Shown here piece by piece: positions 6,016 to 13,327 of a DNA stretch of 64,000 bases; position 1 is the first letter of the stretch, and each line of letters starts with the position of its first letter. A program made the position numbers and the translations under genes. Under the pieces are notes generated by a model. It did no database searches and was not told the DNA's origin. It worked only from the letters and a program-made list of their open reading frames with translations. Source of the DNA: an uncultured Thermoplasmata archaeon (GTDB taxonomy: Archaea > Thermoplasmatota > Thermoplasmata > UBA10834); assembly GCA_963719945.1 (NCBI GenBank), contig CAVRDX010000004.1:320001-384000 (forward strand), read 5' to 3'.

Positions 6016-8051
6016 TCAATATGTGACAAGCCCCATCTTCTTGAGATCGCTCATGAACCTCAAAGCATGTTCATGTGCGGTCGGTCCGAATTCTGCTGAG
6101 ACGACATCCATTATCTCTTGGAGATTCCTCTTTCCGTCGATGAGATTCACCATGTCGTAGGCTTTTCTCGAGAAATCGCGATCACTGCTCTTCGACCTCA
6201 TGGTACCATTGATAATCGTCCCCGAGTTCTTCGGCCATGTAATCCGAATCGACCGTACCCTTGAACAATCTCCTTGGAACGATGCCTCTGACTTCGATCT
6301 CGATCTCAGTCTCTTTCAATCTCTTCGGTATCATCACATTCTTGTCAGCCGTGATGGTATCGATGATGTGTTCGAACCTCAAGCTCTCTCGCGCACCATG
6401 TGTTTCGATATCGTTCACCTGCTCGGCGACAAAATCGCGCAAGGATTCAGAATCGTGTAATCTGCAGACAGATCTTATCGCACCTGCTTCCCGGGATGTG
6501 ATCTGTCGGATGCACATCCGGTGATGTCTGATGAGCTTCGCCAGCTCCTCTCCTGTCTTCTTGGACTGCTTCGGAGAATCGATCTTGGCGAACAGTTCCT
6601 CTGATGCATGCCGCACACGATCCGTCACCCTCTTCATACCTTCAGCACAGGTGTTTGCAGCCAACTCTATCGCTGTGCGCTCGTCCGCATTGGCTACCGT
6701 GAGAATGGCTGTCGCAGCAGCAAACCCAGCTCTCCTTAGGCTATCCTCGCTGACCTTATCCATCGTATCCATGCTGGTATGGTAGAACTTGTCCGGCCAT
6801 TGTGTGAGGCTTGCACACGGGACACCGGTCGTCGATTCGCAGAATTCGGAATGGTCGCTTCCTCCAGTATAGGGCGTTCGCGCATATCTGAAATTGCTGA
6901 TCATTCCGAGCTTGACTCTGTCATCGTACGCTTCGTTCGCCTTCTCTATCGCAGAGAAGACGAGATCGTTCAGATACGAAGGTATCGAATCTGGTGTGCA
7001 ATCAAGGCAGAGAGTGGACCCGCATAACTCCTGATTCTCACCCACCATGTCCAAGTTGATTGCCGCCAACAGTCTTTCTCTCATCTCAGGGTGCGTCGAT
7101 AGTAGCGCCACTGAGCCGACCGTCTCGGGCAACCACAGGAATCTGATGGTCCTTTTTGGTCGTTTCATCTTTCCTGATTTGATGAGTGCCATTAGAGGTA
7201 CGTGCGATTTCCATTAGCAATCCGCAACCTGATGCGTTATCGTTCGCCCCAGGTTTCGGATGACATAGATGTGCGACCAAGAGTATCTCTTCGTCAGGCT
7301 TCTCGGACCCCTTTATCGATGCAGAGAGGACCTCGTATTTTCCGAGCATCAGTTTCGCATCCACTTCCGCATGCAGTTTCACTGGCTTACCTGATTGGAG
7401 AATCTTGCGCAGCTCGTTCCCCTGGCGTTTGCTGATCGAGAATCCGAATCTTATCTTGTTCTTGTTACCTGCATTTGGCCATATGCCTTGATACGAATGC
7501 GCGTCAGGGATGTCTACATTCTCTCTGAATTTGGAGAACTCATAGGATAGGCTGTCAGTGATCACACCGGCAGCTCCTCTCTTAACCACGGCGTGCTCGT
7601 GCACCAGTTTCGCTCGGCCAGTCGCAAGGACGATCTTTCCCTTCACCTGCTTTCCCTTGTAGTCCTTGTCTGAGGTGCCCATTCCAACATCTATCAATCT
7701 CGCGGTGACACCGCCTTCTGGGGTTTTGTTGCTGTATGTGTGGAGTGATTGTGGGATGTCCCGGAACCTGGCAATTATTCTCTCCTCAGGTTCCAGCAGC
7801 CTGAGTTCCGCATCGTTCACTGACCATCCCAAAGTCGTCACATGTGTCCAATATCTGTGCTTACCATCAGCGACGAATCGCTCGACAAAGATATCTTCTA
7901 GGCCGATCCTGGAGAGTTCATCCTTCACATACTCAACAGCATCATGATACATCACGGATGCCTGAATCCTATGAAATTTAGTCAATCTCTCGACGAAGGC
8001 TTTTGCGCTCACGCCTGACAGCTCCGCCTTCAGAATCCTATCTGTTTTCAT
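6016..8051 (-). CDS. M28 family / DUF4910-like aminopeptidase with PA domain and C-terminal wHTH; split by two +1 frameshifts
   Basis: AHLCHPKPGANDNASG, PETVGS, INLDMVG, GGSDH and YHTSMD are spread over ORFs 7086-8132, 6182-7192 and 6016-6201. They join if one base is removed near 7196 and one in 6187-6201. Confidence 0.85.
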
Positions 8052-8185
8052 AGTCAGCCCAGATTGTGCAGAACACTCTTCCCCATATGAATATTTTGTA
8101 CCAGAACCATCTCCGTGGGTGTGTCGAGACAAATGCTCATCGCCAAGATACTCTTTATCTGGAATCTGAATGATACGGTCTGTCG

Positions 8186-9349
8186 ATGTCCCGCAAGATA
8201 TTGGCAGTCGTTATGATCTTCATCATATTCTTCGCAATGTTGATTGTTATCGCTCTGATGCAACCTTCTGGGAATAATGCGCAGACCACTCTGACCAGGG
8301 AAGAAACCATTCCTGAAGATGCAGTGAAAGGTACTCCCGTCAATGATCTCTACCCACCGATATTGAATTCCGATGAGTGGGAGACGCCCGTCCCCATGGA
8401 AGGACCGATCAACACAGCAGGTGCAGAGGATTCTCCTTTCATCACTCCTGACGGCGGAAGGTTCTTCTTCTTTTTCACACCAGATGTATCCGTACCTGTC
8501 GAGGAACAGCTCATGGATGGTGTGACAGGCATATGGTGGTCTCAGCTCTCAGGTGGCATTTGGACCGAACCCGTGAGGATATTGCTGAACGACGACGTGG
8601 CTCTGGATGGTTGTGCCTTTGTTCAGGGCAATGTCCTTTGGTTCGCATCCGTCCGTGTCGGGAACATCGGCGAGATCGATATCTACACTGCTAGTTACGT
8701 GAACGGTATATGGACTGATATTGAGAATGCCGGGACTGTGCTGAACGACGACCTCGATATCGGGGAGTTCCATATCACCGCAGATGGCAGTACGATCTAT
8801 TATGGTGGACCGGGAGAGACGGGCAGCGATCTTGACATTTGGTGCGCGCACAGATCCGGTGATAGTTGGGTCTCTCCCGCGAGAGTGCCCAACGTCAACA
8901 GCGACGGCAACGAGAATATGCCGTTCATTTCTGCCGATGGTGAAGAACTATGGTTCACAAGCGACAGCCACGAGTATCCAGGTCCCGCAGTGTTCCGTTC
9001 TCTGTGGAACGGGTCAGGATGGGATGCGCCTGAAGAGATCGTCACAAGATTTGCCGGTGAGCCGACCCTGGACGAAGACGGCAACCTCTACTTCATCCAT
9101 CACTATTTCGACTCTGATATGAACATGATCGAAGCTGACGTGTACGTAGCATACAAGAAGCAATCCGTGAGTGCGTTCGATCTCTACGATGTTTGTTCAG
9201 AGGATTGCGAGGATTCGGATGCATGCTACATCTGTGACTGCACATGCTGTGAGGAATCGTTCGATTCATTCTTGGTATGTGCAGTCTGGTCGATCAACGA
9301 TGCTTTCGAAGGGAGGACTGTTGATGAATTGTCCGAAGTGTGGGACTAA
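8186..9349 (+). CDS. Secreted/anchored PD40 (TolB-like) beta-propeller protein with Cys/acidic C-terminal tail
   Basis: N-terminal TM. Repeats INTAGAEDSPFITPDG, HITADGSTIYY and VNSDGNENMPFISADGEELWFTSD. Confidence 0.8.
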   Translation: MSRKILAVVMIFIIFFAMLIVIALMQPSGNNAQTTLTREETIPEDAVKGTPVNDLYPPILNSDEWETPVPMEGPINTAGAEDSPFITPDGGRFFFFFTPDVSVPVEEQLMDGVTGIWWSQLSGGIWTEPVRILLNDDVALDGCAFVQGNVLWFASVRVGNIGEIDIYTASYVNGIWTDIENAGTVLNDDLDIGEFHITADGSTIYYGGPGETGSDLDIWCAHRSGDSWVSPARVPNVNSDGNENMPFISADGEELWFTSDSHEYPGPAVFRSLWNGSGWDAPEEIVTRFAGEPTLDEDGNLYFIHHYFDSDMNMIEADVYVAYKKQSVSAFDLYDVCSEDCEDSDACYICDCTCCEESFDSFLVCAVWSINDAFEGRTVDELSEVWD

Positions 9350-9533
9350 GATGGAGCATGGATATCTCGCAGCCGGCAGCACTTCTTCAGGGGCCATGAC
9401 CCGGTTGGAATGGTTCGATCGCAAGCCGACGGTCCCCTTGGTGGGGTCAGTCCCACTGACAAGGTATGCCTCGATTGGCAATGCAGAAGGGTACAGGTGC
9501 GCGGGTTGTAGGATGGTCTTGGCATCTTATTGA
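9324..9533 (+). CDS. Small zinc-ribbon protein (PF20097/DUF6487-like)
   Basis: MNCPKCGTKMEHGYL...W...EGYRCAGCRMVL. GGAGG RBS upstream of ATG 9324. Confidence 0.8.
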   Translation: MNCPKCGTKMEHGYLAAGSTSSGAMTRLEWFDRKPTVPLVGSVPLTRYASIGNAEGYRCAGCRMVLASY

Positions 9534-9544
9534 TGGAGAACGGA

Positions 9545-10189
9545 TTATTCCTCATCGTCATCCTCAGGCGCTGGTCTCGTCCTCCTCCTGGAGATGATCA
9601 GCATCAATATGATGGACGCAGCGCTGATCAGGACGATCGCAATCGCGATGACTGTTGATAGATAGAACACGCTCTCTATGTCGATGTGGATTGACTGAAG
9701 CAATGGATCGAGCACGCTCTCTCCTATCGTGAGATGCGCACCCATGGAACCGGCTACCGAGATGGCGGCGTATGATGCAAACGTAATCATTACGAAAAGA
9801 CTCGACATGAGCGGGCTATTGTAAACGGCGATTCCGAACTTCGACCTGGTCACTACAACGATGCACCAGAGCACAGTCCCGAGCACTGTCAACATGATCT
9901 TATTCTGGACCAGTGGGGAATCGAGCAATGCATCGACTGGCCATGCTAACATGCCGGTTATTGCTGATAGAATGAGGCCGACGACTCCTGCGATGGATGC
10001 GACATACCCCGCAGCATCGGTATAGACGATCATCTTATCGAATCGTTCCGACCGATCGCTGGAGCATCTGACCCCTCGCCTCTTGATCATTGATGCAGCT
10101 GCTGTGACCAAGATGCAGGCGAATGCTAGGGTGAGGAATCCTGCATGGAGCTCTGCCGTCAGTGAATGGAGCGCGCTCATGCTCACCAA
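9545..10189 (-). CDS. DUF2231-like integral membrane protein (possible b-type heme protein)
   Basis: About 5 TM segments with LHSLTAELHAGFL, SAITG and AGSMGAHL, resembling the DUF2231 pattern. Abuts the upstream gene with no gap. Confidence 0.6.
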   Translation of the reverse strand: MVSMSALHSLTAELHAGFLTLAFACILVTAAASMIKRRGVRCSSDRSERFDKMIVYTDAAGYVASIAGVVGLILSAITGMLAWPVDALLDSPLVQNKIMLTVLGTVLWCIVVVTRSKFGIAVYNSPLMSSLFVMITFASYAAISVAGSMGAHLTIGESVLDPLLQSIHIDIESVFYLSTVIAIAIVLISAASIILMLIISRRRTRPAPEDDDEE

Positions 10190-11119
10190 CTAATCATCTC
10201 CTTCGTCCGTTTTTCCATGCATTATGCCCATCATCGCTATTGTCGCGACACAAAGGGCGATCGCCGCAGCAGAGATTGCGATGATCGTCAGAACCCACGA
10301 TGTCATCTCCTTGTCGTTGTCGAATATCACCTGGATATCAGTCCAGCCTACTCGGCCAGCAATATCAATGGCGGTTATGTTGAGTTCATGAGAGCCATCC
10401 GAGTAGAGGGTCGTATCGATGCTCCATTCAAATGGTTCATCCGATAGATTACTCACCATCACGCCATCGATTCTGAGGATAACATACTCGACATCATCGT
10501 AGCTCTGTATCGTAGCAGCCAATTCGTCTATGCCTTCCGCAGTCTGTCCACTTAGGTGCGATGTAATGGATATGTGCGGGGCCAATGTGCTTGGATCGCG
10601 ACTGTTCTCGAGCACTGTGAAAGTCAAGCCTTGGGCATAATCTGTCACATAGCTCCCGCCGTCCCCATGCATCTCTCTTGCATAGAGGGATACGGTGCAG
10701 TTGGCAACAGGGGCCATGAGGGTCCAGGTCATTGAGACGGATCCTGCATATGATGCCACTTGATAGTAGTTATAGCTCGTAATCCCGCCAGGATCTTTGA
10801 TTATTGTCCAGCCTTGACTTGCAAGGCTGCTGTTCTCGCCTCCAAGCGCGGAGAGTATCATGACACCTAGTGGCGTACCATCCGCTTCCGCTCCAGTCAC
10901 GTTGACCGTGACGTTGATCAAGTCGTGAGGCTCAATCAATCGAAGCGGAGTCCACATGGTGATCGTCGCGGAACTCTCATCATCGTGACACGACCCACCG
11001 CAACCGTAATCATAACTTCCTGGAAGTGGCCCTCCAGGATAGGCGACCATCGTAGGCGCCAAGAAAACGAACGCAGATGATATCGCGAGAATGATGATCA
11101 CAACGCTCCTGATTCTCAA
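10190..11119 (-). CDS. Membrane-anchored extracellular protein: Reeler/choice-of-anchor-V-like domain with CX3CH motif, Ig-like domain and C-terminal TM
   Basis: Signal peptide, then GCGGSCH, TWTLMAP, Ig-like WSIDTTLYSDGSHELNITAID and a TM helix. TTG start at 11119 after GGGAGG. Confidence 0.7.
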   Translation of the reverse strand: MRIRSVVIIILAISSAFVFLAPTMVAYPGGPLPGSYDYGCGGSCHDDESSATITMWTPLRLIEPHDLINVTVNVTGAEADGTPLGVMILSALGGENSSLASQGWTIIKDPGGITSYNYYQVASYAGSVSMTWTLMAPVANCTVSLYAREMHGDGGSYVTDYAQGLTFTVLENSRDPSTLAPHISITSHLSGQTAEGIDELAATIQSYDDVEYVILRIDGVMVSNLSDEPFEWSIDTTLYSDGSHELNITAIDIAGRVGWTDIQVIFDNDKEMTSWVLTIIAISAAAIALCVATIAMMGIMHGKTDEGDD

Positions 11120-11292
11120 ATCGGCCCTCCCATGCTGTTCGCGAGACTGGCATCTAATCGTTTGGATATGTTGAGCCACATGGTTGATTCGGAATAAAAA
11201 GCCCTGCTATTCCATGAAAACGCACTTCGAGCAATCCATGCGATGGTTTGATTTCCAACGATGTCAATCATCGCCCGAAGAGCTAGGGCCGT

Positions 11293-13327
11293 ATGGATCT
11301 AGGAAATCTGCTATTGGTCATCGCCGCCACCGCGCTGATATCCGGAATATTCACGCGCATCGTTCAATCGAGATTTGGTGGGATCCTGCCAGGCCGCGTA
11401 TCGACTTCATTGCTCCTGGTGTCTGTGTTCGCGATCTCATTGTCGTTGTTCTACACGTGTTTTCCTCTTCGCATCTTCCGACATGAGCTACGATTATGTG
11501 TGGTCAAAATCTTCTACAGATACCTCCCTTCCTTACAGGATATCCGCAGTTTGGTCCGGTGGGGAGGGTGCTGTGCTGCTATGGACCTGGTTCATGTCCC
11601 TGGTTGTTCTGGCCGGCATATGTTATGATCGACGAGCTAATCTCAACGCGTCCTACAGGTCTTTCTTCATCATCGTATCTGCATCGATAGTCCTTTTATT
11701 CGCTCTGATCCTCATAGGTATGGACCTTTTTGCAGCGACGGATTCGGCGGCACTCGCGTCGTGTCCGGACGGTTGCGGTCTCAAGCCTGTTCTCGCAACT
11801 CCGGAGATGGCATTGCATCCGCCAGTGATATTCGCTAGCTATGCGTCGTGTCTCGGACTGTTCGCGGCATCGATTTCCTTCTTCTGGGCGAGGGAGTCCG
11901 ATTGGAGTTCAATCTCGCTGTCATGGGGACGTGTGACTTGGATCCTGCTGACCCTCGGCATAGGCATAGGGTCAGTATGGGCGTATTACGTTATCGGCTG
12001 GGGTGGATATTGGTACTGGGACCCGGTCGAGACCGTCTCTTTGATTCCGTTCTTGCTCGTGAGTGCGTTCCTGCATACGCTCCGGAGGAATCGTGAAAAA
12101 AGGGAATACATGATGTCCGCGCCTCTCCTAGGTGCCCTGTCCTTCTGTTCGATAATATTCGCCACATTCGTTACGCGCACTGGAGGAATATGGGGGTCCT
12201 CCATTCACACATATGGTTCGTCATCTGATCTCCCCCTGGGATCTCGTTTGCTCGACGCGATCGGGAACGATCCAACCGTTATGGGCATATTCTCTTTGTT
12301 GGTCGTATCGATCTCTCTCACCGTCGTGTCTGCTGTGTTCGCATACAGATACACGGGAGCATCGACCAACCACGGCCATGCCAATCGATTGAGCGACCTC
12401 ATCAACGACAGGAACTCCATCATGGCATCAGTGATATTGCTCGTCACGATCGCCATCATGCTGGTCGCCTTTCTAGTCAAGAACGCCGATGCGTCCGCGA
12501 GCGATAATTATGCGGAACTCAATCAGAAGATGTCAGTATTCTTCTGCCTCCTCATGTTGACCCTAGCAGTGTCGTCTGTGTGGCGAGTCATCGGAAGGAG
12601 AAACGCCTTGTTGTTGTCCGTCGGAGCGTCATCGTTTTCAGTCATATTGGCAGCCTACTCCTATGTGACCGGCTCGTTCGACACGCTCCTCGCATTCACC
12701 GTTCCGATCTACGCGCTGGCAATCGGATCGATCATCGTCAAAGTGTCTAATATGAAATATCGTGGTCGGCTGAAGCCCCATCTATACAAACTGGGGCCCG
12801 AATTGGTTCACTTCGGCATTGCACTCATACTACTGAGTTCGATCGCATCCTCTCAGCTGGCTTCCCGACCCATTCAGGGCGAATGGACAAGCATAGACTT
12901 GGGTGGAGAGTTGGCGGCCGGCGGATACACGATCAGATTGCTGTCGCTTGAGCTGGTCGAGGACGAATACGTCGAATCTGGGTGGACGGTCACTGCGGAG
13001 GCTAGGGCGACCTTGGGCATAATGCGATCAGACGGCAGCGTTGGTGCGGTCGTTGTATTGAGGGATCTGTACGGTATCGCGGAAGGCTCAGGTATGGTGT
13101 CCAAGTTGGACAGCGATGTCTACGTCCATAGCTCGATTGTGTCCGACCTTTGCCTCGGTTTCGAATGGTCTACGGAGATGACGGCCATCGTCTACATGAA
13201 AGTGGTCCCTATGATGAGTGGTCTTTGGGTTGGGTTGGTCATCGCCGTGTCAGGCGCCACTATCCGTATGATGACGTGGTCTTCCACATCGACATCTAGG
13301 CAAGTGACGACCGTGCAAGAGGATTAG
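11293..13327 (+). CDS. ccmF: Cytochrome c biogenesis heme lyase CcmF/CcsA family (one +1 frameshift near 11460-11464)
   Basis: WSGGEGAVLLW, LHPPVIF, WWD domain GSVWAYYVIGWGGYWYWDPVET, LHT, FVTRTGG..SSIH and LVHFGIAL. The N-terminal TMs are in ORF 11293-11628 and join at TGT-TTT-C-CTC. Confidence 0.9.

Follow-up and report, generated by a model that had tools for sequence, protein, structure and literature searches.

A CcmF gene linked to a candidate immunoglobulin-fold CX3CH cytochrome and a five-helix membrane partner in genomes of Thermoplasmata

Background

Can the cytochrome c synthase CcmF serve a surface cytochrome in a genome where none of its usual partner genes is found? The question is raised by a locus of an uncultured Thermoplasmata archaeon, in which a ccmF gene is transcribed divergently from two abutting genes, one encoding a predicted membrane-anchored surface protein with a CX3CH motif (hereafter the CX3CH protein) and the other a membrane protein with five predicted transmembrane (TM) helices (hereafter mem). 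The locus lies in the window analysed here, a stretch of 64,000 nucleotides spanning positions 320,001-384,000 of contig CAVRDX010000004.1 (GCA_963719945.1), and the host genome comprises 1.78 Mb in 4 contigs and is 87% complete. CcmF is the synthase of the System I maturation pathway and is considered to require CcmC and CcmE for the delivery of its heme. An initial annotation, made from the letters of the window, proposed that the locus is a self-contained module in which a dedicated lyase matures a monoheme surface protein wired to a membrane cytochrome b, possibly for extracellular electron transfer. In the one archaeon studied genetically, CcmABCEF has been characterised as the core machinery (PMC9084895).

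In this work we analyze the gene content, linkage and residue conservation of the locus across related genomes. The reading that we put forward, with a rough probability of 0.55, is that a monoheme c-type cytochrome of immunoglobulin (Ig) fold and its 5-TM partner are what is left, in minimal form, of a cluster for surface electron transfer, and that CcmF matures this cytochrome, in six species without CcmABCE.

Co-occurrence and genomic context

Relatives were searched in two sets, 49 genomes of the order and 401 genomes at class level, all of them metagenome-assembled genomes (MAGs). Within the order, one and the same set of 15 of the 49 genomes encodes the full-length CX3CH protein and CcmF, and in each of these genomes mem is the gene immediately downstream of the CX3CH gene. 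Outside this set mem is found in two apparent remnants, which consist of a shortened CX3CH gene followed by mem, without CcmF, in G015, and of an N-terminally short mem alone in G036. The three genes, whose linkage the initial annotation had singled out for examination in relatives, hence form an evolutionarily linked unit.

The unit occurs in two states. In nine of the 15 genomes, all from one genus, the full state comprises CcmF, a conserved 591-aa protein, CcmE, CcmC, CcmB, CcmA and a multiheme cytochrome, in a cluster transcribed divergently from the CX3CH-mem pair and with ccmF at roughly 7 kb from the pair; Pfam profiles recognize CcmE, CcmC, CcmB and CcmA in this cluster, together with an 8-9-heme, c7/c3/MtrC-like cytochrome with fn3. 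The other six genomes, distributed over three genera and including the host, are in a CcmF-only state, with a single PF01578 gene each, no CcmC, no CcmE and no multiheme cytochrome. The ccmF gene is adjacent to and divergent from the pair in five of these six (the host, G014, G023, G042 and G046). In a CcmF tree, a 100/100 clade unites the CcmF-only genes of G014, G027, G042 and G046, all on branches of ordinary length, which argues that the CcmF-only state has been maintained and is not a set of fresh wrecks.

The absence of recognisable ccmA, ccmB, ccmC and ccmE genes from the window, as originally described, extends to the whole host genome, where we find no specific homologue of any of the four, no PF03100 match and a single PF01578 gene. 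Searches by tblastn with the CcmC, CcmE, CcmB, 591-aa protein and multiheme cytochrome of the relatives likewise returned nothing in the host genome, at its 87% completeness.

At class level the association persists, with PF01578 present in 25 of the 32 mem-bearing genomes versus 15 of the 369 without mem. An operon running from a 9-heme cytochrome through the CX3CH gene to mem recurs in two other families, within large clusters of Ccm and multiheme cytochrome genes, and this placement of the pair beside 9-heme cytochromes is consistent with the extracellular electron transfer role originally suggested. A fused CX3CH-mem gene in G046, considered as Rosetta-stone evidence, was discarded because a run of N had produced the apparent fusion.

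Two further observations concern the surroundings of the unit in relatives. Several Thermoplasmata families have full clusters in which CcmF is always followed by a secreted protein of ~450-590 aa (Table 1), which belongs to no Pfam or NCBIfam family and is absent from the host; it is a candidate for an archaeal stand-in for CcmH/I. In G014, a CcmF-only genome, the genes after mem encode a MenA-like UbiA prenyltransferase and an NirJ2/AhbD-like radical SAM/SPASM protein (L054, 6099-8237, + strand). The AhbD/NirJ-like radical SAM protein was rejected as a part of the module, since a homologue of ~260 bits is encoded by most genomes of genus g3, with the module or without it; true AhbD is found only beside ALAD, in G010, G011 and G012.

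The ccmF gene and its client

The ccmF product scores 93.5 bits against PF01578 (cut-off 29.9) and 155 bits against the TIGR00353 CcmF/NrfE model (cut-off 569), and by these profile scores it is a divergent member of the CcmF/NrfE family. Alignment to Thermus CcmF (6ZMQ) confirms the intact WWD motif and conserved His residues read earlier from the translation, with all four His (two periplasmic and two TM) retained. The host protein thus resembles Thermus CcmF and System I in PF01578, in the TIGR00353 superfamily, in the WWD motif and in the four His, and differs from System I CcmF in its low TIGR00353 score and in a frameshift. Codons 1-56 (MDLGNLLL...LFYTC) are read in frame with 11293 and all later ones in frame with 11375, which amounts to a +1 shift; removing one T would yield a CcmF of ~677 aa, like its CcmF-only homologues (675-680 aa). 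Taken alone, the shift is weak evidence of gene death, and it may stem from the assembly or from recoding. An ORF-overlap statistic of frameshift rate (ORF, open reading frame) gives ~300 per Mb in host and relatives alike and hence does not discriminate between them.

The initial annotation further assumed that the unusual heme-attachment motif calls for a dedicated lyase. The spacer of the motif varies among orthologs from CX2CH to CX4CH, and each of the 15 genomes encodes one CcmF, which in nine of them lies inside a cluster with CxxCH multiheme cytochromes; a motif-dedicated lyase is therefore unsupported. CX3CH is, moreover, a recognised motif of ImcH/CymA-type cytochromes, handled by general maturation systems and counted together with CXXCH (PMC6295460, PMC10734462). 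ImcH and some CymA homologues (PMC6295460) share with the host protein a membrane-near CX3CH, an association with extracellular electron transfer and a general maturation system, but they are helical multiheme cytochromes, whereas the host protein bears one motif, on an Ig-like sandwich, and has a separate polytopic partner. A census of the host genome revealed no credible secreted CXnCH/CxxCH protein besides the CX3CH protein, so an intact CcmF would have one plausible client. What stands of the self-contained module is therefore its CcmF-only form, without CcmC or CcmE, in six species of three genera; what falls is its dedication on account of CX3CH, CcmF being dedicated to the CX3CH protein only by default.

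The CX3CH surface protein

From its N-terminus, the CX3CH protein consists of a signal/anchor helix, the CGGSCH motif (14 residues past the predicted signal cleavage site), a beta sandwich, a Big_7 Ig domain (E 2e-6) and a predicted C-terminal TM anchor helix, and its AlphaFold2 (AF2) model has two beta sandwiches and a terminal helix. Profiles and model thus bear out the signal peptide, GCGGSCH, Ig-like domain and TM anchor of the first description. The N-terminal sandwich aligns with the choice-of-anchor V model NF041895 (MXAN_6652 family) over profile positions 2-135 of 150, at a sub-threshold 25.6 bits (E 1e-5, cut-off 42), and by this match choice-of-anchor V is a distant relative only. 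For the label "Reeler", PF02014 yields no match at E<=1 for the host protein and none at E<=0.01 among 83 relatives; the label, for which an Atlas score of 0.89 was the sole lead, was dropped as being without support from hidden Markov models (HMM) or fold. NF041895 is matched by 52 of the 83 relatives, and its bacterial members carry a CGGSCH-type motif; the CX3CH protein differs from them in forming an archaeal branch, in having a TM anchor for a sorting signal, in its obligatory 5-TM partner gene and in its linkage to CcmF.

Residue conservation is concentrated on the motif and its candidate ligands. Both Cys and the His of CGGSCH are invariant in 11 orthologous domains, as is the His of REMHG, and within the subfamily C40, C44, H45, M55 and H151 vary little or not at all, in agreement with the earlier proposal of a distal ligand in REMHG. 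The spacer, by contrast, is variable among orthologs (CATCH, CGGSCH, CGVDSCH). The wider family comprises 172 representative clusters across bacteria and archaea, and among the 149 examined for spacing, of 150 listed, CX3CH accounts for 69, CX2CH for 18, CX4CH for 8 and CX5-6CH for 10. Across the 83 wider relatives the two Cys and the His are at least 90% conserved, and in more than 90% of wider-family members the C-terminal Cys directly precedes the His, an arrangement (CH) that is characteristic of heme c. RVHHG retains the distal His in other families of the class, and in CAGTSKH paralogues the distal His and the CH dipeptide have been lost together. With its variable spacer and this joint loss, the motif behaves like a heme site, and on these grounds we infer covalent heme on the CX3CH protein as well as the identity of its axial ligands.

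Members lacking the CH dipeptide are also seen in a Methanomassiliicoccales MAG (L070, 4122-9536), where two tandem pairs of family protein and mem adjoin CcmABCE; the tandem family proteins read GCAGTSKH, without CH dipeptide or distal His, and a third member reads CGFRPGCH.

The same motif could instead be a disulfide or a metal site (for copper, for example) on an adhesin-like Ig protein, with CcmF co-occurring through a shared surface-protein/cytochrome island. This explanation can draw on wider-family variants of the types CXCH, single-Cys and C-x2-H...M, which resemble Cys/His/Met metal loops, on the proximity of the domain to choice-of-anchor V, a surface-protein family to which no cofactor is assigned in the libraries queried, and on a generic Ig-like fold. 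It would, however, leave CcmF without a substrate in six genomes, although CcmF is conserved there with intact active-site residues; in addition, the mem-like genes of CcmF-less genomes encode H..C in place of H..H and lack a family partner nearby, and the Cys directly before His is what heme c attachment would predict. We therefore consider a non-heme site unlikely.

The membrane partner

The homologues of mem fall into 64 clusters, all of them unnamed and none with a Pfam domain. The N-terminus faces out, and the AF2 model is a four-helix bundle with a fifth TM helix. H5 and H12 are the only residues of His invariant in 62 mem sequences and sit close to the outer face on TM1, at a spacing of 7 residues; TM4 frequently carries H150, which is substituted in several members. 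Most mem proteins combine outward-facing His with two conserved cytoplasmic Cys motifs (TCP and ETCQK..WDEP). Two identities proposed earlier for mem found no support here. As regards DUF2231, PF09990 gives no match at E<=1 for mem and none in 151 genomes of the class, mem-bearing ones included, so that this label, for which an Atlas score of 0.89 was again the sole lead, was set aside for want of HMM support. As regards a cytochrome b, the sole invariant His residues share one helix, and the fold matches are generic four-helix bundles with Z <13, below the noise level for helical proteins, which include segments of b561, STEAP, cytochrome bd and CcsBA without distinction. A profile search against PDB sequences found nothing for mem or for the heme domain.

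The pair does resemble the Reeler/DOMON plus cytochrome b561 ferric reductases and other beta-sandwich cytochromes in joining an external sandwich with a heme motif to a helical membrane protein with conserved His. The likeness is one of architecture: neither in sequence nor in fold does the pair match Reeler, DOMON, cytochrome f or b561 beyond background, and b561 has two His pairs on separate helices, whereas mem has two invariant His on one.

In G150, a mem-like gene with H-x6-C for H-x6-H (L086, 5364-6005, + strand) is convergent with and abuts CcmE-CcmC-CcmB-CcmA, with no CX3CH-family gene nearby. Such an arrangement could mean that mem and the CX3CH protein are accessory parts of archaeal cytochrome c maturation, acting as a heme or apoprotein chaperone or as a thiol/heme relay that replaces the missing CcmH, CcmG, CcmD or CcdA. 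Archaeal systems do lack CcmD, CcmH and CcmI (PMC9084895), the co-occurrence with CcmF in the order is perfect, and the Cys motifs and outward-facing His of most mem proteins would suit a relay. Against this, mem is missing from 15 of the 40 PF01578-bearing genomes of the class and is thus no general Ccm component; furthermore, the host census and the failure to find a multiheme cytochrome homologue indicate no other cytochrome c substrate in the CcmF-only genomes, which would leave the accessory parts with nothing to mature. A maturation role accordingly has little probability in our estimate.

Heme supply and proposed mechanism

Neither ALAD nor porphobilinogen (PBG) deaminase was found in the host genome, and only 3 of the order's 49 genomes encode ALAD. 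The host nonetheless encodes a NarI/HdrE-type b-heme subunit, and its heme is therefore probably acquired from outside, by scavenging. External heme would make the export/chaperone branch CcmABCE dispensable and thereby provides a rationale for CcmF-only systems. Heme auxotrophy as the sole cause of CcmABCE loss is ruled out by six full-cluster genomes that, with CcmABCEF and 8-9-heme cytochromes, also lack ALAD; to judge from their gene content, these six imply that scavenged heme can supply multiheme cytochrome synthesis.

In the mechanism that we propose, the CX3CH protein would be a membrane-anchored monoheme c-type cytochrome, carrying heme at the N-terminal CX3CH of its Ig-like sandwich, the distal ligand being either His151 or Met55, and mem, its 5-TM partner, would be translationally coupled to it: mem starts with TTG-GTG-AGC-ATG (MVSMSALH) right after the TAG of the CX3CH gene, with zero gap and with GGAG upstream of its start. 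The System I synthase CcmF would attach the heme. Because in relatives the pair closes an operon of multiheme cytochrome genes within a complete CcmABCEF cluster, the pair may constitute a membrane-proximal relay on an electron path to the cell surface. Co-occurrence, gene content, conserved residues and linkage are what the genomes show directly; which way the electrons flow, and to what end, is inferred, and the host copy may or may not still be active. In the host and five other species, CcmF would load heme without CcmC or CcmE, probably heme obtained by scavenging because the genome lacks tetrapyrrole synthesis.

Going further, the CcmF-only route might be self-sufficient in some heme-auxotrophic Thermoplasmata, with CcmF taking up heme without CcmABC and CcmE, either scavenged or handed over by the His-bearing mem, and with its single client as the founding member of an undescribed group of Ig-fold c-type cytochromes. 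We put this forward tentatively, as a possibility that we doubt on balance.

Weighing the proposal and the state of the host copy

Several results tell against a functional cytochrome matured by CcmF alone. The characterised archaeal system needs CcmABCEF (PMC9084895), and CcmF alone is without known precedent. The CcmF-only genomes are MAGs that are 65-92% complete, G027 being a single contig of 1.42 Mb, and the ALAD-less genomes with full clusters show that heme auxotrophy by itself does not account for the loss of CcmABCE. Fold searches with the heme domain returned generic Ig, MG, cohesin and pilin matches only (Z ~9), and the single-Cys, CXCH and C-x2-H variants of the wider family are unusual for heme c. 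In the host itself, ccmF is frameshifted in the genome assembly, mem lacks the conserved cytoplasmic TCP and ETCQK..WDEP motifs, and the terminal branches of the three genes measure 1.6, 1.8 and 1.06, where the medians are 0.38, 0.24 and 0.30 (3.5 to 7.5 times the median). On these figures, the host copy may be decaying.

The points from the host can indeed be assembled into an account in which the trio is a decaying remnant of a larger Ccm and multiheme cluster, drifting and frameshifted since CcmABCE and the multiheme cytochrome were lost, from which nothing functional is made. The frameshift, the long branches of all three genes and the loss from mem of two otherwise conserved Cys-containing motifs would all follow, apparent remnants are also seen in G015 and G036, and a neighbouring M28 peptidase gene is frameshifted by +1 as well. 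Yet, one base aside, the ORFs have stayed open over ~1,200 codons despite roughly at least 1 substitution per site, and all catalytic or invariant residues are retained. In a second sampled organism mem is 88% identical, and the CX3CH protein is kept over no less than its C-terminal three quarters, as a 236-aa piece at 83% identity from which the N-terminal CX3CH region was not recovered; in five other species the CcmF-only trio sits on ordinary branches. We regard decay of the host locus as rather improbable, although it deserves serious consideration, and we retain the reading of a minimal, CcmF-matured remainder of a surface electron-transfer cluster.

Feature coordinates and neighbouring genes

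The three ORFs were found in the ORF listing of the window at the coordinates given in the initial annotation, and direct reading of the sequence confirmed its layout, including the zero gap between the CX3CH gene and mem (Table 1). Immediately downstream of mem and convergent with it lies a gene (8186-9349, + strand) for an exported TolB/PD40-repeat protein with a Cys-rich acidic tail (CSEDCEDSDACYICDCTCCEE), the end of which is overlapped in another frame by a DUF6487 zinc-ribbon ORF (9171-9533, + strand). The M28/DUF4910 peptidase gene (6182-8132, - strand) is split mid-domain by its +1 frameshift, so that profile positions 4-48 fall in the first ORF and 51-191 in the second; the shift site, GCA-C-GTA near 7195-7200, has no homopolymer.

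Table 1. Features of the ccmF/CX3CH/mem locus, in window coordinates, and secreted proteins encoded after CcmF at other loci
Feature	Coordinates	Strand	Basis
mem (5-TM membrane partner, 214 aa)	9545..10189	-	ORF; no Pfam/NCBIfam family; AF2 predicted local distance difference test score (pLDDT) 86.6
mem H-x6-H (LHSLTAELH)	10145-10171	-	outer end of TM1
CX3CH surface protein (309 aa)	10190..11119	-	ORF; AF2 pLDDT 92.6
CX3CH gene, alternative GTG start	11179	-	ORF reading
CX3CH protein, Big_7 Ig domain	~10379-10579	-	profile match
CX3CH protein, C-terminal TM anchor	~10208-10315	-	predicted
CGGSCH, candidate covalent heme-attachment motif (C40, C44, H45)	10985..11002	-	conservation in orthologs
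REMHG, His151 as candidate distal axial ligand	10664..10678	-	conservation
Met55 of ITM, alternative candidate axial ligand	10955-10963	-	
Divergent intergenic region (173 bp), CX3CH operon / ccmF	11120..11292	.	sequence read directly
ccmF 5' segment (56 codons, two N-terminal TM helices)	11293..11460	+	translation resembles homologue N-termini
ccmF +1 frameshift site TGTTTTCC	11458..11465	+	T4 run at 11460-11463
ccmF main body	11462..13327	+	open frame from 11375; homology from ~11459
ccmF P-His1 (ALHPP)	11810-11824	+	alignment to 6ZMQ
ccmF WWD (WGGYWYWDPVE)	11999-12031	+	alignment to 6ZMQ
ccmF TM-His1 (FLHT)	12068-12079	+	alignment to 6ZMQ
ccmF P-His2 (SIHTYG)	12200-12217	+	alignment to 6ZMQ
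ccmF TM-His2 (VHFGIAL)	12806-12826	+	alignment to 6ZMQ
Secreted protein after CcmF, L051	4929-6704	-	
Secreted protein after CcmF, L087	3934-5601	+	
Secreted protein after CcmF, L088	10330-11694	+	
Secreted protein after CcmF, L089	11129-12490	-	

Conclusions

System I and c-type cytochromes are themselves known; it is the CcmF-only configuration that the known rules of cytochrome c assembly do not explain, and it is the part that would surprise specialists. The structural study of CcmF reportedly left open whether the protein obtains heme on its own. The five-protein CcmABCEF system of Methanosarcina acetivorans (PMC9084895), which like the systems described here has no CcmH, stands against a CcmF without CcmA, CcmB, CcmC or CcmE in six species. 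A conserved CcmF-only set with one candidate client would constitute a natural experiment on heme acquisition by CcmF, and would bear on how heme-auxotrophic anaerobes build surface cytochromes. Beyond this order, the unannotated family of 172 clusters overlaps choice-of-anchor V, and its conserved CXnCH suggests that many surface or adhesin-like proteins may be cytochromes.

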